In this document: piece by piece, positions 8,376 to 44,060 of the stretch
Layout: the number at the start of each line of letters is the position of its first letter
Position numbering within the stretch: the first letter of the stretch is position 1
Source: Eledone cirrhosa
Lineage: Eukaryota
DNA: 64,000 nt
Assembly (NCBI GenBank): GCA_964016885.1
Contig: OZ024741.1
Location: forward strand, 58,342,001-58,406,000
Direction of reading: 5' to 3'
Program-made: the position numbers and the translations under genes
The notes under the pieces: generated by a model
What the model saw: only the letters and a program-made list of their open reading frames with translations
Told to the model about the DNA's origin: nothing
The model's database searches: none

Positions 8376-8478
8376 ATATGTCCTATATAGATATGTATAT
8401 ACATGTATAAAGATATATATAGATATGTATATGTATATAGATATGTATATATAGATATATATAGATATGTATATATAT
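8376..8478. repeat. (TA)/(TAGA)/(TATG) compound microsatellite at the 5' junction of RTE copy 1
   Basis: Direct reading. Confidence 0.9.
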
Positions 8479-10945
8479 GTATAAACGAGACAATCACTTG
8501 ATCACCTATAGATCGGGGGAACACACAAGCCAGGTAGATTATATCCTTACCAGAAGACGTGACAGAGTGTCTGTTGTTAACACTAAATCCCTCCCCCATG
8601 AAGAATTCACCTCCCAACATAGACTGATAATTAGCGACCTCATAGTCAGGACGAGACGTACTAGACAGCGGAAGAGGACTATCCTCAGGAGAAAAATATG
8701 GAAGCTAAAGGGCCCCATAGCCAGAAATAAATTTCAAAGCATATTACTTGACGCTTTCGACAGTAAGGAAGAGCAATTAGAGTCGTATAATATAGAGGAA
8801 CAGTGGGAATTCCTGAGAGCAAACCTGCTGACGGCGGCAGACGAAGTCTGTGGCTGGAGCAGGCCTGTAGGTAGGAGGAGAGTAACATGGTGGTGGAACA
8901 GTAAGGTGGAGGAGTCAATTAAGGCCAAAAAGCAGGCTTGGAAAGCATGGCGGGATGGGGGAAGTATAGAAGACTATCAGGTGGCCAGGAGGGAAGCTAG
9001 GAGACAAGTGTACTTCGCAAGAAGGGAAGCAGAGGAAAGAAAGTTCAAGCTTGTTCTACAACGTGAGGACCAAAAACGTGAGGTGTTCAGGATTGCCAGG
9101 CAATGTGTCAAGGAAAACCGTGATATTGTCGGGGAGAAGTGTGTACTTAACGATGATGGCATACTTGCCATCACCGACGCTGATAAGAAGGTAGCTTGGA
9201 AGTGTCACTACGAAAGGCTTCTAAATGAGAACAAATGGGAGAAAGACAGTCTCCCCCACATCGACTCAATAGAGGGACCAGCAGTGTTAGTCCAGGGTAG
9301 TACAATAAGCAAGGCAATCAAAGATATGAAGACGGGTAAGGCGGCTGGTCCTTCGGAAATAGTTGCTGAGATGCTGAAGGCATCTGGTTCGGTGGGACAC
9401 ACCATGGTCACCCGGACAGTTAACCAAGTCGTACAGAATGGGGTTGTTCCGAAGGACTGGCGTAGCAGCATCATCGTTAACTGCTATAAGGGAAAAGGAG
9501 ATGCCCTAGATAGGAGTAACTATAGAGGCATTAAATTAATCAACCAGGTCATGAAGGTCACGGAAAAAGTAATAGCGCAACTAATCAGAGAGAGAATTGA
9601 TCTAGATGAAATGCAGTTCGGATTTGTGTCAGGCAAAAGTATCACAGACACTCTTTTCATTGTACGACAACTACAGGAGAAGTACCTAGCTAAAAGTAAA
9701 CCCCTATACTTAGCTTTCGTCGACTTGGAGAAAGCCTTCGACAGAGTCCCCCGTTCCATTATCTGGTGGTCTCTTAGAAAACTAGGTGTTGACGAATGGC
9801 TTGTGAGAGCTATACAAGCCATGTATAAAGAAACAGTCAGTAAGGTTAGAATTAACAACGAATATAGTGAAGAGTTTAGCGTAAAAGTTGGTGTCCATCA
9901 GGGCTCTGTTCTTAGCCCCCTACTATTTATTATTGCCCTTCAGGCTATAACAGAGGAGTTCAAGACCGGCTGCCCATGGGAACTCCTATACGCAGATGAT
10001 CTAACGCTCATAGCTGAATCAATGACCGAACTAGAGAAGAAATTCCAAACATGGAAGCACGGCCTAGAATCAAAAGGCCTTAAAATTAACCTGGCTAAGA
10101 CTAAAGTTCTAGTTTGTAGGAAAGAAAATATGGCGGCAGTCCCATCTGGGAAATGGCCATGCTCAGTGTGTAGGAAAGGCGTAGGTAGAAACTCCATTTT
10201 ATGTCCCAAATGCAAAGTATGGGTGCATAAAAGATGTAGTGGGATCACAGGTAAGCTAACTAAGAACATAGATTTTACATGTGGCCGGTGCTCTGGTGCA
10301 ATAAGTAGCAGCAAGTGCCCACAAAATACTAGCTCCTTCAACTGCGCAGAGGGTTCTATAGAAATAGTGGACAGCTTCCGTTACCTGGGTGACAAAATCA
10401 GCAGTGGGGGAGGGTGCTCTGAAAGTACAGTAGCTAGAGTCAGAACTGGATAGAAAAAGTTCAGAGAGCTTATACCACTATTAGCCGCTAGAGGGTTCTC
10501 CCTAAAAATGAAAGGCAGGTTATACGATGCCTGCATACAAACAGCAATGCTGCATGGCAGCGAGACCTGGGCATTGTGTGCAGAGGATATACGCAGACTA
10601 GAGAGGAACGAAGCTTGCATGCTCCGCTGGATGTGCAATAGTAATATACGTGAACGGCAAAGCATAAACGAACTAAGGAAAAAATTAAAAATAAGAGGGA
10701 TCAGATGTTGTTTACTCGAGAGAAGGCTACGTTGGTACGGTCACGTGATGCGCATGAAAGACGACGGCTGTATAACAAAGTGCAGGCCAATAAAGATAGA
10801 CGGTAGCCACGGAGTAGGCAGACCCAGAAAAACATGGGACGAGCTGATAAATTCCGACCTCACACGCTTACACCTCTCCAAGACAATTTCACTGGACCGA
10901 GACCTTTGGCGGTACTCAGTAATAGAGAAGACCCGCCTTACCTAA
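8477..10945 (+). pseudogene. RTE ORF2 (partial APE + RT + PHD finger) broken by one in-frame TAG at 10451-10453
   Basis: ORFs 8477..10453 and 10508..10945 share a frame; copies 2 and 3 have TGG (RTGW) at the TAG position. Confidence 0.92.
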
Positions 10946-22636: not shown

Positions 22637-24549
22637 TCATCATCATCATCATCATCATCGTTTAATGTCCGTGTTCCACGCTTGCATGGGTTTGGACGGG
22701 GGTAGTCCCACTTGAGGCAAGAGTGATTGTCTTGCTCGCATAGGACTGTCTGGCAGGTTTTCTACAGTTGGATGCCCTTCCTAACACCAACCACATTTAC
22801 AGTGTGGGTCTGGGAGGTTTTTACCGTGTTGCCTACACGGCCACATTACAGCGTGCACTGTGTTTTTTTGTCGTGACACCTACACGATCTCATTTGTTTC
22901 GGCCTGGATGGTGTGGCACCAACATAACTTTACATAGAACGGGGTGGTGTGGATGGGGTGGGGTGGTGGGACGGGGTGTATTTTGTTAGAGATGCCTACT
23001 GGCTGTAGTAGGTTTTACTATGTATTTAGGTAAGGCGGGTCTTCTCTGTTACTGAGTACCGCCAAAGGTCTCGGTCCAGTGACATTGTCTTGGAGAGGTA
23101 TAAGTGTGTGAGGTCGGAGTTTATCAGCTCGTCCCAGGTTTTTCTAGGTCTGCCTATTCCGTGGCTACCGTCTATCCTTATTGCCCTGCACTTTGTTATA
23201 CAGCTATCGACTTTCATGCGCATCACGTGTCCATACCAACGTAGCCTTCTCTCGAGTAAACATCTGATCCCTATTATTTCTAATTTTTTCCTTAGTTCGT
23301 TTATGCTTTGCCGTTCACGTATATTACTGTTACACATCCAGTGGAGCATGCAAACTTCGTTCCTCTCTAGTCTGCGTATATCCTCTGCACACAATGCCCA
23401 GGTCTCACTGCCATGCAACATTGCTGTTCGGATGCAGGCATCGTACAACCTGCCTTTCATTTTTAGGGAGAACCCTTTAGCAGCTAATAGTGGTATAAGC
23501 TCTCTGAACTTTTTCCAACCAGTTCTGACTCTAGCTACTGTACTTTCAGAGCACCCTCCCCCACTGCTGATTTTATCACCCAGGTAACGGAAGCTGTCCA
23601 CTATTTCTATAGAACCCTCTGCGCAATTGAAAGAGCTAGCATTTGTGGGCACTTGCTGCTACTTATTGCACCAGAGCACCGGCCACATGTAAAATCTATG
23701 TTCTTAGTTAGCTTACCTGTGATCCCACTACATCTTTTATGCACCCATACTTTGCATTTAGGACATAAAATGGAGTTTCTACCTACGCCTTTCCTACACA
23801 CCGAGCACGACCATTTCCCAGAAGGGACCGCCGCCTTATTTTCTTTCCTACAAACTAGAACTTTAGTCTTAGCCAGGTTAATTTTAAGTCCTTTTGATTC
23901 TAGACCGTGCTTCCATGTTTGGAATTTCTTCTCTAGCTCGGCCATTGATTCCGCTATGAGTGTCCGGTCATCTGCGTATAGGAGTTCCCATGGGCAGCCG
24001 GTCTTGAACTCCTCTGTTATAGCCTGAAGGGCAATAATAAATAGTAGGGGGCTGAGAACAGAGCCCTGATGGACGCCAACTTTTACGCTAAACTCTTCAC
24101 TATATTCGTTGTTAATTCTAACCTTGCTGACTGTTTCTTTATACATGGCTTGTATAGCCCTCACAAGCCATTCGTCAACGCCTAGTTTTCTAAGAGCCCA
24201 CCAGATAATGGAGCGGGGGACTCTGTCGAAGGCTTTCTCCAAGTCGACAAAAGCTAAGTAGAGGGGTTTACCTTTAGCTAGGTACTTCTCCTGTAGTTGT
24301 CGTACAATGAAAAGAGCGTCTGTGGTACTTTTGCCTGACACAAACCCGAACTGCATTTCATCTAGATCAATTCTCTCTCTGATTAGTTGTGCTATTACTT
24401 TTTCCGTGACCTTCATGACCTGGTCGATTAGTTTAATGTCTCTATAGTTACTCCTATCTAGGGCGTCTCCTTTACCCTTATAACAGTTAACGATGATGCT
24501 GCTATGCCAGTCCTTCGGAACAACCCCATTCTGTACGACTTGGTTAACT
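22637..24549 (-). mobile_element. RTE LINE copy 2 (5'-truncated, one frameshift)
   Basis: ORFs 23607..24416 and 23026..23652 are near-identical to copy 1 protein; 1-nt deletion at CPQN (cacaaaatact vs cacaaatgct); (CAT)n tail at 22637-22659. Confidence 0.95.
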
Positions 24550-33849
<9,300 letters not shown>

Positions 33850-34454
33850 TCAGGTCACCAGTTGGTGCTACTGGTAACATGTATCCCAGTACAACCTGTC
33901 CCATGGTCTGTTCGTTGGTGACTAAACTGGCAACCCCACCAATGTTTCTTGGTGAGGAGGGTGACTTTGGACATCCTGCAGGACTAAAAACAAAACCTGT
34001 CAAAGGGCAAAGGAGCTCTTAAGAGTCAATGGCCATCCAAAATCACCGGGAGAGATGACCCCTTAGCCTTTGTCAAGGCAGAATTCTAGGAGAAGGAAAA
34101 CTCTGATATAACACCTGCAACCCTGATGGTTTCCAATGATGTTGACTTGTTCTTCTTTTTGGTAAATATCATATTGGTTAAGAGAGTGGGACTGGCTTTG
34201 TGCAGTGCCTTTGCTCACTATAAAAGCTTCACAGCGCAGGCATTGCTTTATATCTGGAGATCTCTGCACTTGTCGTCACATGGTACCATGGGCCCAGCAC
34301 TATGTGTCAATAATTGTCACAAGTGTAGTGTCTGTACCAGAGCTTTCAAGTTGCTGGCTGGACTAAAAAGTCACACTCGTTCAGCGCATCGGTAGGGGTT
34401 CTCCTACATGGATATAAAGTAGTGGCTGTACTCGAAAACGAGTTGGCAGCCACC
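33850..34454 (+). mobile_element. Bipartite RTE-derived non-autonomous element (5'UTR-like part joined to a 3' end with C2H2-like finger and terminal hairpin)
   Basis: ctaggagaaggaaaactctgat at ~34085-34107 (recalled as an RTE 5' motif); [25 protein letters not shown] like RTE/BovB-type ORF2 C-termini; hairpin GTGGCTG-t-ACTCG-aaaa-CGAGT-tgg-CAGCCAC at 34422-34453. Confidence 0.6.
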
Positions 34455-34457
34455 ATG

Positions 34458-34492
<35 letters not shown>

Positions 34493-34577
34493 GTATATGT
34501 GTGTATATATGTGTATATATATATATGTATATATGTGTATATATATATATGTATATATGTGTATATATATATATGTA

Positions 34578-34662
<85 letters not shown>

Positions 34663-34712
34663 GTGTGTGTATATATATATGTATATGTATATATATATAT
34701 ATGTGTGTATAT
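34455..34712. repeat. ~260-bp (TA)/(TG) microsatellite between two 3' ends
   Basis: Direct reading. Confidence 0.95.
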
Positions 34713-34810
34713 ATAACTTTGAATAACTTTGAATAACTTTGAAATGTTTTGGCCAGTATTGGCCCAGGCCATGTCTAACTTAATAGCACCACCTGGCGAA
34801 GTCTTTCAAT

Positions 34811-37800
34811 TCAGGATTTGGGCACCATGGCCCATTCGAGAAGAGAATTACTGTTTGCGGAGACATATCCGGGTGTGGGTGGTTTGTCCGGGATTACTTG
34901 GAGGAATTTGTCCAAAGACTTCTTGAATTTTGAGTGGTCAGTTTCTGTTTTGACGTGTCCTGGTGTGATGTTGAAGAGAGCAGGGCCGATTGAGGTGAAA
35001 TAATTGTGCCGTATTGTTGTTATGAGTTGCGATTTAGATTTTTGAATGGGACGGATAGCACGGGGCCCAAGCCTTGGGTGTATCTTGAAGGCGATGCCAA
35101 CATCATTTGGGCAGTGATGATGGAACATTTTCCACATCATGCAGATAATATAACGCTCACGGCGACGTTGGAGTGAGTAAAGTTTCAGCTTTTCTAGTCG
35201 ACCCCAGTAGTCAAGGTCTGACATGCCATCTATCTTTTTCGTGATTGCCCTTTGAGGAGCTTCAAGTTTCATGATACTTTGTTTCGTGTGGGGAGACCAC
35301 AGTGGACAACAGTATTCAAGGTGTGGTCGGGCGAAAGTAGAGAAGAGAAGGATAATGGTGCGGGAATCTCTCGACTGGAAGGTTCTGAGGATCCAGGAAC
35401 ACATTCTGCGGGCCATGTCAACTTTGCTGCTTATATGCATGGTCCAGCTTATGTTGCTGTCCAAGGTTACTCCCAAGTCTCTGATGTTGTTAGATGCCAC
35501 GAGAGTTTCCCCGGAGGGAAGGGAGTACCGGAGTTTCAGAGCATCCTCTTTTCCAAAGTGGATCAGTTCGAATTTGTCCTCGTTCAGTAACATGTTGTTC
35601 TTTTCTGCCCATTGGGTAACAGCCAGTAGGTCTGACTGAAGGCTTATCCGGTCATCCACGCCATTGATGACCTTTTGGAGCTTGGAATCATCAGCGAAAA
35701 TTTTAATGTTGCTGTGTTTGATGATGTCAGTGATGTCATTAATATAGATGATGAAGAGAAGTGGGCCCAACACAGTGCCTTGTGGGACTCCACTACTGAC
35801 TTTGGCTGGGCTTGATTTGACTCCCTCAACTACAACATGTTGGGTTCTGTTTGACAGGAAGCTCTTGATCCACTGCAGCAGCTTTCCAGTGACACCAATA
35901 TTGGACAGCTTTCTCAGTAGAATGTTATGATCAACCCTGTCAAAGGCCTTGCTGAAATCAAGGTAGATAACATCAGTGTTGGAACCCTCTCCCAAGGCTC
36001 TCAAAATGTCATCAAAGTGATGCAGTAGTTGCGTCAGGCAATCCCTTCCATTACGGAATCCATGCTGGTTGCAGTTCAGCATATTGTTACTCTCAAGGAA
36101 GTGGGTCATTCGCGATCTCACCACTCGCTCAAATACCTTAATGATATGAGAGGTGAGTGAGATTGGACGGTAATTCACGGCAAGGGATTTGTTTCCCTTT
36201 TTGAAAACTGGGACAACAGACTGGGATAGAAGGTTTTCTGGCACATATCCAGCATCCAGTGAGTTCCGCCACAGATTGGCAAGAGGAGAAGCAAGTTGGT
36301 GTTGACACGCCTTCAGGACACAAGCAGGGAACCTATCGGGACCTACTGCTGAATTATGCTTGATTTCCTTTATTGCCGCCAAGACATCAGGGGCGCCAAA
36401 CGTTATGTCCGATAAGGTGTAATGGGGAGTAACATCGCCGATACAGCCCAGATCGGCCATATCAGGATTGCTGAAAACAGAGCAGTATTGTTTCTGCAGT
36501 ATCTCACCCATGGTTTTAGCATTGTCTTGAAGAGTGCCATTTTCATCAATTAGAGGGCCAACAGTAGAGCCAGTGATTTTGTGTTTTTTTGCAAATGAAA
36601 AGAACACTTTGGGATTGAGTTTGATCTTCTCAATGGCCCAGGCCTCTTCAGCTCTTCTCTGATTGTTGATGAGGGACATTATGTTGTTTTGGAGGTTATG
36701 TTTTTTAATCTCTAGTGATGAAATGGCAGTCAAGTTGATGTGTTGCTGCTGACAGTATTTCAGCTTGTTGATTTTTTTGTTCGTTCTCTTAATTTTTCTG
36801 ATGAGCGTTTTTCTATTTCTAGGGATTCTGCTCTTAGATTTGTTTATAGTTCTTAATGGGGTGTGTTTAGCACATATGTTTGTAACAGTGTCCACAAATG
36901 TCTGCCAGGACTTTTTGATGTTAGTGGGTGTATGAGTGTGCGTGAAGGACCAGTCGACATGTGCAAGATCATGACTGATCGCTTCCCAGTTTGCATTGTG
37001 GAAATCCATAGCGTCAAACGGATGGACAGGAGAGATGACATTGGGTTTGTATATTGGACGGTGGAATCTCAGATCACAGAGAACCATGTCATGATCAGAG
37101 AGTAGAGTTTTCTCCACTGCAATATTGTGGATATTGTCAGTGTGATTGCTGAAAATTAAGTCTAGGACGTTTTTGTGGCACCTCGTTGGTTCGAGCACTA
37201 GTTGGGATAGGAAGAAATCATCCATGAAGTCAAGAAGTGATTCCACAGCTTCCCTGTCAGAGGTTGAGGCAGAAGAACCTGGTGGCAGGGTGTTTGTGGA
37301 CCAGTCAACTCCGGGGAGGTTGAAGTCCCCCATCATTAAGATGTTGTCAGGGTGACACTCTTGGATGAAACACTTTATGCTGTTGAGGCATTCCTTGAAG
37401 CATGGTACAGGCGTTTGGGGTGGCCTATAGAGCCCAACTACTAATAGGTTGTTGGTTTGACTGAATACAGTGACTGCCTCACAGTATCCATTAGTGAATA
37501 ATGTTCATAGCCTCTGTTGAGAAAGAATTATGGACATAAATGGCAGTTCCGCCCTTTCTTCTGCCAGCGCGATCAGCACGGATGGCTTTGAAATTTTTCA
37601 CTTTCACCTCGGCTTCCAAGTGGAGGTTACTGAGATGGGTTTCAGTGAGGACGAAGAAAGGGATGTGGTTTGGATGGACATCAATCCAGTCCTCCAGGAA
37701 TTTGATCTTCCATTTTTGAGTATTGGTGGAAGGGCTGATGCCTTGGGCGTTAAGCAAAAATGTAGAGGCGAGAGTGGATGGTTTTAATTGTTTTGGTGTG

Positions 37801-37949
37801 TTGTTAATTTGTTTGTTTGTTAATGGCAGCAATGGGAGTTTGTGCAGTGGGGTGATAGTGGAGGGTGGTGCTGGGTGATAGCTCGAATGTTTTTTTCCAG
37901 TTCTTTTGCCAGATTCATTATGGCTAAAAAAGAGGAAGAAGTTTCCTGT
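34811..37949 (-). pseudogene. CR1 ORF2 (APE-RT) with a single frameshift near 37505-37515
   Basis: The frame of 37491..37832 is open from 37949. It shifts into the frame reading TLFTNGYCEAV..VVGLYRPP..NILMMGDFN, which continues as the 841-aa ORF. Confidence 0.9.
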
Positions 37950-38146
37950 TTAGAAGACTGTTGGTGACTGTGGTAGTGGTTATTTTTATGTAGGTTATGG
38001 TTTTTGTTTTTGCTTTTATTTTTAATTTTATTTTCATTTATCCGACGGGTCCCCGGGAGATGGGTAAAGGGACAATCCCGCTCTAAACACAATCTGTCTC
38101 GCAGGGAAAAACGGCAGATTTGTGGATTCCTTGTTTGAGTTATTGG
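37820..38146 (-). pseudogene. C-terminal remnant of CR1 ORF1 with a CCCH zinc finger
   Basis: Extending ORF 37820..38092 upstream gives [29 protein letters not shown] (C-x8-C-x4-C-x3-H), then an N/K/H-rich linker and FLAIMNLAKELEKNIRAI. Confidence 0.75.
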
Positions 38147-38150
38147 TGGT

Positions 38151-38228
38151 TATATATATGTATATGTATATGTATATATATATGTGTATATATATATATA
38201 TATGTATATGTGTGTATATATATATATA

Positions 38229-38289
<61 letters not shown>

Positions 38290-38804
38290 GTATATGTGTG
38301 TATATATATATATATATGTGTGTATATATATATATATATGTATGTGTGTATATATATATATATATATGTATGTGTGTATATATATATATATATGTATGTG
38401 TGTATATATATATATATATGTATGTGTGTATATATATATGTATATGTGTATATATATATATATGTATATGTGTGTATATATATATATATGTATATGTGTG
38501 TATATATATATATGTATATGTGTGTATATATATATATGTATATGTGTGTATATATATATATATGTATGTGTGTATATATATATATATGTATGTGTGTATA
38601 TATATATATATGTATGTGTGTATATATATATATATGTATGTGTGTATATATATATATATGTATGTGTGTATATATATATGTATATGTGTGTATATATATA
38701 TATATATGTATGTGTATATATATATATATGTATATGTGTGTATATATATATATATATGTATATGTGTATATATATATATATGTATATGTGTGTATATATA
38801 TATA

Positions 38805-38869
<65 letters not shown>

Positions 38870-40684
38870 GTATATGTGTGTATATATATATATGTATATG
38901 TGTGTATATATATATATGTATATGTGTGTATATATATATATGTATATGTGTGTATATATATATATATGTATGTGTGTATATATATGTATGTGTGTATATA
39001 TATATATATGTATGTGTGTGTATATATATATATGTATGTGTGTGTATATATATATATATGTATGTGTGTGTATATATATATATGTATGTGTGTGTATATA
39101 TATATATGTATGTGTGTGTATATATATATATATGTATGTGTGTGTATATATATATATATGTATATGTGTATATATATATATATGTATATGTGTATATATA
39201 TATATATGTATATGTGTGTATATATATATATATGTATATGTGTGTATATATATATATATGTATATGTGTGTATATATATATATATGTATATGTGTGTATA
39301 TATATATGTATATGTGTGTATATATATATATATGTATATGTGTGTATATATATATGTATATGTGTGTATATATATATATATGTATATGTGTGTATATATA
39401 TGTATGTGTGTATATATATATATATGTATATGTGTGTATATATATATATGTATATGTGTGTATATATATATGTATATGTGTGTATATATATATGTATATG
39501 TGTGTATATATATATGTATGTGTGTATATATATATATGTATATGTGTGTGTATATATATATGTATGTGTGTATATATATATATGTATGTGTGTATATATA
39601 TATATGTATGTGTGTATATATATATATGTATGTGTGTGTGTATATATATATGTGTATGTGTGTATATATGTATATGTGTGTATATATATATATGTATATG
39701 TGTGTATATATATATATCTATATGTGTGTATATATATATGTATGTGTGTATATATATATATGTATATGTGTGTATATATATATATGTATATGTGTGTATA
39801 TATATATATGTGTGTATATATATATATATGTATGTGTATATATATATATGTATGTGTATATATATATATGTATATGTGTGTGTGTATATATATATGTATA
39901 TGTGTGTATATATATATGTATATGTGTGTATATATATATATGTATATGTGTATATATGTATATGTATATGTGTGTGTGTGTATATATATATGTATGTGTG
40001 TGTGTATATATATATGTATATGTGTGTGTGTATATATATATGTATATGTGTGTGTGTATATATATATGTATATGTGTGTGTGTATATATATATGTATATG
40101 TGTGTGTGTATATATATATATGTATATGTGTGTGTGTATATATATATGTATGTGTGTGTGTATATATATATATGTATGTGTGTGTATATATGTATATGTG
40201 TGTATATATGTATGTGTGTGTATATATGTATATGTGTGTGTGTGTATATATATATATGTGTGTGTATATATGTATGTGTATATATATATGTATATGTGTG
40301 TATATATATATATGTATATGTGTGTATATATATATGTATATGTGTATATATATATATATGTATATGTGTATATATATATATATGTATATGTGTATATATA
40401 TATATATGTATATGTGTGTATATATATATGTATATGTGTGTGTATATATATATGTATGTGTGTATATATATATGTATTTTTGTATATATATATGTATATG
40501 TGTGTATATATATATGTATATGTGTGTATATATATATGTATATGTGTGTATATATATATGTATATGTGTGTATATGTATATGTGTGTATATATATATGTA
40601 TGTGTGTGTATATATATATAGATATATATATGTATATGTGTGTGTGTGTATATATATATATATATGTATATGTGTGTGTATATA

Positions 40685-40715
<31 letters not shown>

Positions 40716-40776
40716 GTATATATGTGTGTATATGTATATGTGTGTGTATATATATATATATATGTATATTTATATA
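38151..40776. repeat. ~2.6-kb compound (TA)n/(TG)n microsatellite
   Basis: Direct reading; richer in TGTG than the 9.3-kb array. Confidence 0.98.
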
Positions 40777-41790
40777 TGGAATCCCCAAGAAGATAGTGAA
40801 CCTGATATCACTCCTCTACACCAAGACCAAAGACCAAGTCATTACACCTGATGGGATGACACTTCTTTGAGATACTGGCTGGAGTGCTCCAGGGAGATAC
40901 ATTGGCTCCCTACCTTTTTATCATTGTAGTGGTCTATTGTATGCGCCTTGCACTGGAGAAACACCAGGACTTTGGCTTTACTGTAGCACCGGCTCAGAGC
41001 AGGAGAGTTCAGGCGAAAAAGATATTGGATGCTGAATTTGCCGACGACATAGTTTTGGTGACAAATACAGTGAAGGAGGCAGAATATTTGATGCAGGAGG
41101 TTGAGATTGTGTCGATGAGTGTGGGGCTGAGAATGAGACTAAAACAAAATATCTGGTAGAGAATGTTGAGAAGCCAGAGGTGATCACTGATGTAGGCGGG
41201 AAGCCGCTAGAATTGGTTGAGGACTTCCTGTATTTGGGAGCAAAGATTGGGAATACGGAAGATGATGTGGTTGAGAGGAAGAGCAAAGCCTGGGCGGCGT
41301 GCCACAGCTTGAGATCGGTGTGGAAGTCGAACCTTTGTGAAGACCTGAAAATCCGCCTCTTCATTGCTGTAATGGAGTCTGTATGGGTCTGAGACTTGGA
41401 CACTGACCAAGAAACTTACACAGATGGTGGATGGGTGCTACACGAGAATGCTGAGGATGGCTCTGAACATTAATCAGTATACACTGAGGATGAAAAGCTC
41501 AGAGATATATGGGAGCTTCCCAAAAGTCAGCCCAAAAGTGACACAGAGGAGACTGAAGTTAGCTGGACATGCTCACCGACATCCAGAGTTGACATTGCAC
41601 TCACTGCTCCTGTGGGAGCCCCTACCTGGACACACTGGGAGAGGAAGACTAAGGTTTACGTAAGTTGATGCCCTAAGGACAGACACTGGTCTATTGGAGA
41701 CGCAGGACATGGCAACGATAATGAGGGCGGGACAGACACCGCTAGAGAGAACTCGTCCATGGATCTTGGGATTTTACCCGCCCTAGAAAA
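40775..41790 (+). mobile_element. Degenerate 5'-truncated LINE of a different RTE-like family
   Basis: [59 protein letters not shown], with frameshifts and stops. Confidence 0.88.
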
Positions 41791-41811: not shown

Positions 41812-43942
41812 ATCATCATCATTTAACGTCTTTCTTCCACACTAGCATGGGTTTAGATAGGGATTGTCCCACTTGATGCAAGATTGGTTGTCTTGCTCGT
41901 ATAGGACTGTCTGGTAGGTTTTCTACGGCTGGGTGCCCTTCCTAACACAAACCACATTTACAGTGTGGACTGGGAGGTTTTTACCGTGTTACCTACACGG
42001 CCACATTATAGCGTGCACTGTTTTTTTTTTTTTCGTGACACCTACACAACCTCATTTATTTAGGACTGGATGTTGTGGTACCGACATAATTTTACAGAGA
42101 AAGGGTTAGTGTAGATGGGGGTGGAGGTAGGGGTAGTGGAATGGGGGTGTATATTTGGTTAGGAGGTGCGTACTGACTGTAGGTTTCGCTTTGTACTTAG
42201 GCAAGGCGGGTCTTCTGTGTTACTGCATAGCGCCAAAGATCTCGGTCCAGTGACATTGTCTTGGAGAGGTGTAAGGTCGGAATTTATCAAATCGTCCCAG
42301 GTTTTTCTGGGTCTGCATACTCCATAGCTTCCATCAATTTTGATCGCCCTGCACTTTTTTATACAGCTGTCGTCTTTCATGCGCATCACGTGACCATACC
42401 AACGTAGTCTTCTCTCGAGTAAACAGCATCTGATCCCTCTTATTCCTAGTTTCTCACTTAGTTCATTTACGCTTTTCCGTTCACGTATATTACTATTACA
42501 CATCAAACGGAGCATGCAAGCTTCATTCCTCTCCAGTCTGCGCAGATCCTCTGCACACAATTCCCATGTCTCACTGCCATGTAACATTGCTGTTCGTATG
42601 CAGGCATCATACAGTTTGCCTTTCATTTTTAGAGAGAAACCTTTAGCGGCTAATAGTGGTATAAGCTCTCTGAACTTTTACCATCCCGTTCTGACTCTGG
42701 CTACTGTATTTCAGAGCACCCTCCACCACTGCTGATTTTGTCACTCAGGTAACAGGTGTCCACTATTTCTATAGAACCATCTGGGCAATGGAAGGAGCTA
42801 GTATTCTATGGGCACTTGCTACTTATTGCACCTGAGCACTGCCCACATATAAAATATATGTTCTTAGTTAGCTTACCTGTGACCCCCACTACATCTTTTA
42901 TGCACCCATACTTTGCATTTGGGAAATAAAATGGAGTCTCTGCCTACTCTGTTCCTACACACTGAGCATGGCCATTTCCCAGAGGGAACCAGTGTCCTAT
43001 TTTCCTTCCTACATACTAGAACTTAATCTTAGACAAGTTAATTTTAAGGCCTTTTGATTCTAGGTCATGCTTCCATGTTTGGAATTTTTTCTCTAGTTCA
43101 GCCATTGATTCAGCTTTGAGCGTTAGATCATCTGGAAATAGAAGTTCCCATGAGCAGCCGGTCTTGAACTGCTGTTATAGCCTGAAGGGCAATAATAAAT
43201 AGTAGGGGGCTAAGGACAGAGCCCTGATCAACGCCAACTTTTACGCTAAATTCTTCACTATATTCGTTGTTAATTCTAACCTTGCTGACTGTTTCTTTAT
43301 ACATGGCTTGTATAGCTCTCGCAAGCCATTCATCAACACCTAGTTTTCTAAGAGCCCACCAGATAATGGAGCGGGGGACTCTGTCAAAGGCTTTCTCCAA
43401 GTCAACAAAAGCTAAGTATAGGGGTTTACTTTTAGCTAGGTACTTCCTGTAGTTGTCGTACAAGGGAAAGAGCGTCTGTGGTACTTTTACCTGACACAAA
43501 CCCAAACTGCATCTCATCTAGATCAATTCGCTCTCTGATTAGTTGTGCTATAACTCTTTCTGTGACCTTCATGACCTGGTCAATTAATTTAATGCCTCTA
43601 TAGTTCCCCTATCTAGGGCATCTCCTTTACCCTTGTAGCAGTTAATGATGATGCTGCTGCGCCAGTCCTTCGGAACGACCCCATTCTGTATGACTTGGTT
43701 TACTATATGGGTGACCATAGTGTGTCCCTCCGATCCAGTTGCTTTCAGCATTTTAGCAACTATCTCCGAAGGCCCAGCTGCTTTGCCTGTCTTCATATCT
43801 TTGATTGCCTTACTTATTATACTACCTTCAACTTGCACTGCTGGGCCCTCTATTGGATCGATTAGGTGCAGACTATCTTTTTCCCACTTATTCTCCTCAT
43901 TTAGTAGCCTCTCGTAGTGACACTTCCAAACTACCTTCTTAT
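41812..43942 (-). mobile_element. RTE LINE copy 3 (5'-truncated, several frameshifts)
   Basis: ORFs 42159..42626, 43128..43517 and 43584..43838 match copy 1; (CAT)n tail at ~41812. Confidence 0.93.
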
Positions 43943-44060
43943 ATATATGTGTATATGTGTGTATGTGTGTACATATATGTGTGTATGTGTGTACATATAT
44001 GTGTATATGTATGTGAATATTTATAGATGGACCTTACATTCTGATATATATATATATATG
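43940..44060. repeat. Interrupted (TA)/(TG) microsatellite at the 5' junction of copy 3
   Basis: Direct reading. Confidence 0.85.

Follow-up and report, generated by a model that had tools for sequence, protein, structure and literature searches.

How long interspersed elements (LINEs) produce the protein of their second open reading frame (ORF2) is an open question: the process is described as unconventional and has been studied mainly in L1 and SART1 (PMC2881922, PMC5009743; here and below, statements about cited articles hold for the parts of their text that were available). Human L1 and silkworm SART1 use a bicistronic RNA from which ORF2 translation depends on that of ORF1 (PMC2881922), and +1 frameshifting or reinitiation has been suggested for elements of Paramecium (PMC5405496). 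For TRE5-A and TRE3-A of Dictyostelium, retrotransposons without long terminal repeats (LTRs) that are listed in the L1 clade, a review states a −1 frameshift (PMC5911963); the available text of PMC5006619 contains nothing further on it. In HIV-1, the heptamer U UUU UUA is the gag-pol frameshift site and acts together with a 3′ stem-loop (PMC4373837, PMC5009743). We analyzed a stretch of 64,000 nucleotides from Eledone cirrhosa (contig OZ024741.1, positions 58,342,001 to 58,406,000; "the window") that carries on its minus strand a 5′-truncated, inactive copy of a CR1-like LINE family, here called family A (34714..38151, the blastn match beginning at 38151), with the same heptamer at its ORF1-ORF2 junction.

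This junction resembles HIV-1 gag-pol in that the heptamer has the same phase, usually with a codon starting in G next, and in that a structural ORF lies upstream of a polymerase-encoding −1 frame without a start of its own. It differs in belonging to a non-LTR element without protease, so that a fusion protein would stay whole, in its overlap of 34-86 dual-coding codons, and in the lack of a detected stem-loop in family A and its distant relatives B and C. TRE5-A and TRE3-A likewise have an ORF2 with apurinic/apyrimidinic endonuclease (APE) as well as reverse transcriptase (RT) that is stated to need a −1 frameshift from ORF1 (PMC5911963), but differ in clade and host. In contrast to reinitiation as described for L1 and SART1, the CR1-like element has widely overlapping frames, an ORF1 stop without an AUG, and a fixed, phased heptamer. 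An initial annotation of the window had set the retroviral mechanism against the reinitiation of studied LINEs, a distinction that holds for L1 and SART1 but has to be softened in view of the TRE elements. What is new is a proposed retroviral-type frameshift signal in this CR1-like lineage and not the kind of mechanism as such. No paper on −1 frameshifting in CR1 was found in the literature searched, outside whose coverage most subscription journals and Repbase reports lie.

The element has the features of the CR1 group, namely an ORF2 with APE endonuclease followed by RT, no LTR, a 3′ tail of short tandem repeats, and frequent 5′ truncation. The C-terminal motifs of ORF2 presumably point to the same label, and CR1 membership, as judged from anatomy and these motifs, is likely. 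None of 7 ORF1 proteins has an esterase domain in Pfam searches, which sets them apart from canonical vertebrate CR1 (type IVB). CR1-lineage LINEs with a PHD or unclassified ORF1 (Metcalfe and Casane 2014, PMC4120745) have the APE and RT ORF2, the tandem-repeat tail, and a variable ORF1 in common with our element; the available main text of that study mentions neither CCCH nor frameshift, and "frameshift" is equally absent from that of the CR1 surveys PMC13343379, PMC11203168, and PMC10294476.

The ORF1-ORF2 junction and its conservation

In the window copy, ORF1 is represented by the last 109 of its about 389 codons (37820..38149; this and all following features of the element are on the minus strand), ending with a TAA at 37822-37820. 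This remnant includes the second ORF1 zinc-finger motif, C-x8-C-x4-C-x3-H (38060..38116), which was read off the alignment and is common to outside homologs; Pfam matches of the finger to CCCH are weak and come from relatives only. Downstream of it, U UUU UUA (37925..37931) is read in the ORF1 frame as part of S-F-L. The −1 frame is closed by a TAA at 37950..37952, 6 codons upstream of the heptamer, and from 37949 stays open through a linker and the endonuclease motifs LNAQG (37754) and TETHL (37646). This 5′ part of the ORF2 frame (37491..37949) has no AUG ahead of either motif, the first in-frame ATG lying at 37508; the endonuclease domain was assigned by Pfam on the intact family A protein. 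ORF1 ends 34 codons after the heptamer, and 37820..37931 codes for the ORF1 tail in the 0 frame and the ORF2 linker in the −1 frame with no stop in either. Twelve codons downstream of the first site, a second heptamer, A AAA AAC (37889..37895), is a possible secondary slip site. The initial annotation had described this arrangement, including the X XXY YYZ phasing of both heptamers, and its coordinates proved correct.

Given the evidence set out below, programmed −1 ribosomal frameshifting at U UUU UUA probably makes an ORF1-ORF2 fusion. The fusion had been proposed initially and is now supported at the level of sequence, from which we infer the mechanism.

Family A is young and abundant, with 39 other copies near-identical over 551 bases (40 scored of 1216 candidates) and 590 genome-wide matches to a junction pattern in which the length of the T-run was left free. 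Among the first 100 of these 590 matches as listed, 93 have T6A, and the rest are 3 T5A, 2 T7A, 1 T7C, and 1 T8A. A homopolymer error or indel in the window copy, which the initial annotation had named as an alternative, is thereby ruled out, and the family consensus does not have a single fused ORF. Of ten long copies, seven have an AUG-started ORF1 of about 390 residues and seven have an ORF2 frame open for 1045 codons; in all ten, this frame starts identically and has its first Met at codon 148, which extends the lack of an AUG before the endonuclease from the window copy to the family. A subfamily at 83-86% identity retains the first heptamer exactly in 5 of its 9 matches, with three of these possibly being one duplicated segment, and shows scattered changes in the other 4. 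In a decayed sister at 73-75%, the overlap and the end of ORF1 are as in family A, and the heptamer is exact in 1 of 3 copies, the other two each having one different mismatch.

Two far more distant families, B and C, were found by searching the genome with outside ORF2 proteins and are about 29-31% identical to A over the endonuclease query; over ORF2, the pairwise identities among A, B, and C are 38-43%. In both, the −1 frame holds ORF2, the first Met falls within the endonuclease, and T TTT TTA codes for F-L at the corresponding position downstream of the zinc finger, with the heptamer present in 24/24 family B loci and 25/28 family C loci (a few loci fetched twice). An exhaustive protein search gave 14 matches, of which 13 are related and 10 of these have F-L at the site; across the ORF1 alignment, after removal of the unrelated repeat protein P0016, F-L is kept in 13 of 16 sequences, at the start of a helix-like stretch. 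Metagenome contigs scanned with the zinc-finger pattern alone yielded 13 loci that collapse to 8 lineages. T TTT TTA encodes the conserved FL in all 13, of which 12 carry ORF2 in the −1 frame; in these 12 unfused loci, no other heptamer occurs from the finger to the ORF1 stop. All 11 lineages (A, B, C, and the 8 from metagenomes), with ORF2 identities of 29-75%, thus retain an in-frame U UUU UUA, where outside lineage counts leave out the near-duplicates L186, L187, L188, L191, and L196, and all lineage counts leave out the decayed subfamily copies. The lineage tree was built without L190, whose ORF2 is broken, and without labelled clade references.

Zinc finger, FL, and heptamer are kept (A, B, C, P0010, P0015) despite varying ORF1 N-termini, which give matches below Pfam cut-offs throughout: a weak PHD match in B, as in the CR1s of PMC4120745, a weak Myb/SANT-like one instead in A, and a weak Tudor/MBT-like one in P0015. 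Word-based protein searches gave no matches for ORF1, 3 for the endonuclease, and none for longer fused forms, the last being weak evidence. No relatives were found in viral contigs, and prokaryote contigs gave none in one search and one weak match (E 9e-5) in another.

Because F-L could be kept for the protein's sake, we tested the codons themselves. When two of the 11 lineage representatives share a residue, its codon is identical in 16-47% of cases (mostly 31-43%), so synonymous sites look saturated. Of the 149 ORF2 columns whose residue does not vary across 8 lineages (L190, L194, and L195 left out), only 2 keep one codon (Phe 0/9, Leu 0/19), whereas the heptamer's three free positions are invariant in 11/11 lineages; other FL dipeptides in the same ORF2s are coded as the heptamer in 1 of 38 cases. 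Given the amino acids and each lineage's own ORF2 codon usage, the chance of the heptamer is 0.002-0.057 per lineage, with a product over 11 lineages of about 1e-19 that is overstated as far as the lineages, with about five deep branches, are not independent. A lone heptamer in a U-rich stretch is unremarkable; its retention in 11/11 lineages is remarkable. Judged by these codon counts, the conservation of the heptamer is in excess of what the protein needs.

Stop codons tell the same story for the frame. Across the 10 lineages whose ORF2 lies in the −1 frame (the fused L193 left out), the −1 frame has no stop in 664 overlap codons compared with 34 stops in 390 codons just upstream, and the +1 frame has 28 stops in the same 664 codons. 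The overlaps, 34 to 86 codons long, are all stop-free in the −1 frame, which in B and L189 opens only 2 codons before the site. Since −1 stops vanish there, the frame is entered at or near the heptamer. On codon and stop-codon evidence together, the heptamer is a real, deeply conserved recoding signal.

Several observations weigh against this interpretation. The −1 frame of individual lineages is often unremarkably open (P 0.02-0.69; family A 0.22), with only the sum being strong, and seven outside lineages are more similar to one another (54-75% identity), which leaves about 5 deep lineages. An in-frame AUG precedes the conserved endonuclease Asn in two lineages (in the linker of L194 and three codons before the Asn in L197), and a G follows the heptamer in 10/11 lineages, placing an AG directly after the U-run. 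The ORF1 cluster P0015, P0020, and P0021 has D-P-L-E where others have x-F-L-E; our search did not find the DNA of this cluster, in which C CCU UUA, likewise a valid heptamer, could underlie D-P-L. Finally, in contig L193 the heptamer is retained, but ORF1 and ORF2 are joined in frame downstream of it. This single contig (L193:567-4850) holds one 1427-codon ORF1-ORF2 fusion with intact RT, which may reflect a change in this copy or an artefact of assembly. Over 57 codons past the heptamer, its −1 frame still looks like the linker of related elements, which suggests a later single-base change in that contig.

The second heptamer and the RNA stimulator are further weak points. A review counts A AAA AAC among the heptamers most prone to shifting (PMC5009743), but the site occurs only in family A and its 83-86% subfamily, and the 73-75% sister copies vary there; as a main site it was rejected, being absent between zinc finger and ORF1 stop from 13/13 outside loci as well as from B and C. 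The initial suggestion of two slippery heptamers therefore stands for U UUU UUA as a conserved site and not for A AAA AAC, which may, speculatively, add to the first site in family A. As regards a stimulator, the usual spacer after a slippery site is 5-9 nt (PMC5009743). No helix at this distance was better than shuffles in A, B, C, L185, L193, or L195, and the 4-bp GCCA/TGGC hairpin of the window copy (37908..37924), already called weak in the initial annotation, was rejected as stimulator with a spacer of 0 nt and a z of 0.33. In 5 of 8 outside lineages, a helix 5-9 nt downstream beats 38-40 of 40 codon shuffles. The outside lineages' common 6-bp stem is 88% paired, with a two-sided change in 1 of 6 pairs and a covariation score that 120 of 500 shuffles reach, which is not significant.

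Other routes to ORF2

The first competing route is termination-coupled reinitiation at a non-AUG codon near the ORF1 stop, with the heptamer kept for another reason. Reinitiation is the studied route in L1 and SART1 (PMC2881922), the start of L1 ORF2 translation is said not to depend on its AUG (PMC5009743), and family A would offer TTG and CTG shortly upstream of the ORF1 stop in the ORF2 frame, leaving 24 codons up to the endonuclease. In L197, an AUG even lies a few bases upstream of the ORF1 stop. However, reinitiation leaves both the codon-level fixation of T TTT TTA and the stop-free −1 frame over 34-86 overlap codons unexplained. Moreover, in 8/10 lineages, namely family C and outside lineages from L185-L197, the L-N codons of the first endonuclease motif supply the ORF1 stop, leaving ORF1 open across the whole linker, and in 8/10 lineages, family A included, the first Met comes after the conserved endonuclease Asn, which from L1 work we take to be catalytic. 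With the stop on L-N and the first Met beyond the Asn, a restart after the ORF1 stop would cut the endonuclease. Family A has no ORF2-frame AUG at the ORF1 stop in the manner of the SART1 UAAUG, the nearest lying more than 100 codons past the stop, and the sole TAATG in the window junction has its ATG in the ORF1 frame. Reinitiation is thus weakened, with the near-cognate starts of family A and the two lineages with upstream AUG in its favor, and we regard it as improbable.

Equally improbable in our estimate is that U-run and AG form a conserved 3′ splice acceptor joining the start of ORF1 in frame to ORF2. The AG noted above for 10/11 lineages is what this route predicts, 10 of the 14 nt upstream are pyrimidines in family A, whose ORF1 also contains one fair in-phase donor (7 of 9 consensus positions), and splicing would also account for the −1 frame opening at the heptamer. 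Against it, L197 has C instead of G after the heptamer and its next AG in a different phase, upstream pyrimidines vary from 3 to 10 of 14 across lineages and hence form no conserved tract, and no C is found in the run although an acceptor would tolerate it. The other 7 ORF1s that we scanned have no strong in-phase donor (best 5-6 of 9). No spliced genomic copy was found either: genome-wide, T is missing at −3 or −4 of the AG in just 3 places, all of them unspliced variants, and one spliced-copy pattern search on its own covers 4 of 6 in-phase GT sites. LINEs that recognize their own 3′ tail can act in trans, so that a rare spliced RNA could leave few copies. In contigs of 4 runs of unknown kind, none of 15 listed joints (9 more are unlisted) ends at the AG, which is uninformative. 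The splice acceptor raised by the initial annotation consequently survives as an AG and not as a conserved acceptor.

Slippage of RNA polymerase on the T-run, adding one U and yielding a minority of fused-frame transcripts, is more doubtful still. The run is a homopolymer and varies in length in 7 of the first 100 listed copies. Since slipped RNAs should be copied into the genome, +1 copies would be expected in excess; these frame-fusing copies (3 of the 100 listed) are no commoner than −1 copies (3 of the 100 listed), and in the 11 lineage representatives the run is exactly six T and A in codon phase, never longer. Chance or an assembly artefact, be it a homopolymer error or a by-product of the protein-level conservation of F-L in 13 of 16 ORF1s, can practically be dismissed, as the junction is family-wide and codon and stop-codon controls reject a protein-only cause.

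The window copy and its surroundings

The window copy matches the full-length copy L032 in 3424 of 3449 aligned bases (99% identity). Its ORF1 has no start because the copy is truncated at 38151, and its ORF2 is broken by a private 1-nt insertion (37500..37501) that is absent in 29/29 other close copies. Being cut inside ORF1 and interrupted in ORF2, the copy is inactive and makes neither protein. The remaining ORF2 (34811..37504) encodes the rest of the endonuclease and the RT (PF14529 4.4e-14, PF00078 1.4e-30), and the 3′ tail consists of short tandem 10-nt repeats (34714..34741) continuous with a TA microsatellite.

TA-rich microsatellites flank the element on both sides, and family A appears to target them: the 3′ tail continues into (TA)n in all ten long copies (L031-L040) as in the window, and many truncated 5′ ends also adjoin TA repeats. 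TA-type repeats account for about 20% of the window (e.g., 34440-34741 and 38152-40770 around the element). Full-length copies (L031, L032, L033, L036, L038, L040) have a 5′ untranslated region with tandem units of about 240 nt upstream of the ORF1 start; the unit that we inspected has internal TA and A runs and a donor-like motif, but no ATG.

Elsewhere, the window contains decayed RT-bearing elements of another type at 8465-10945 (+), 23026-24460 (−), 40860-41663 (+), and 42159-44033 (−), which we take to be RTE-like from their motifs; the one segment tested, 40860-41156, has an RVT_1 match. One of these elements is interrupted by a TA/CA microsatellite array of about 9 kb (24460-33850).

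Predicted expression of ORF2 and its implications

With −1 frameshifting as the favored explanation, most ribosomes would read ORF1 through to its stop and yield the zinc-finger protein, while a minority would slip back one base on the Phe-Leu codons UUU UUA, read about 60 codons of a low-complexity linker, and then translate endonuclease and RT. The predicted product, a minor species of about 355 ORF1 and about 1040 ORF2 residues, would retain the zinc fingers and lose the C-terminal tail of ORF1. A U6A run alone gives low-level slippage, and LINEs need little ORF2. More tentatively, several outside lineages might use the stem 5-9 nt downstream as a stimulator, and family A, where none was found, may rely on the bare U6A run and the second heptamer.

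On balance, we lean toward a broader view in which an old and widespread CR1-like lineage with a CCCH-finger ORF1 would express its endonuclease-RT only as a Gag-Pol-like fusion via U UUU UUA, kept through swaps of the ORF1 N-terminus (PHD, Myb-like, Tudor-like), with family A representing a form without stimulator and with tandem slippery sites. The fixed HIV-type slippery site makes the production of ORF2 in a LINE directly testable. If the proposal is true, a fused ORF1-endonuclease-RT protein made at a set low ratio would change the way in which the particles of these elements assemble, and their annotation would change as well, because an AUG-based call of ORF2 loses part of the endonuclease. 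The lineage would then also provide a large set of natural U6A sites, some with a stimulator and some without, on which frameshifting in animals could be studied.
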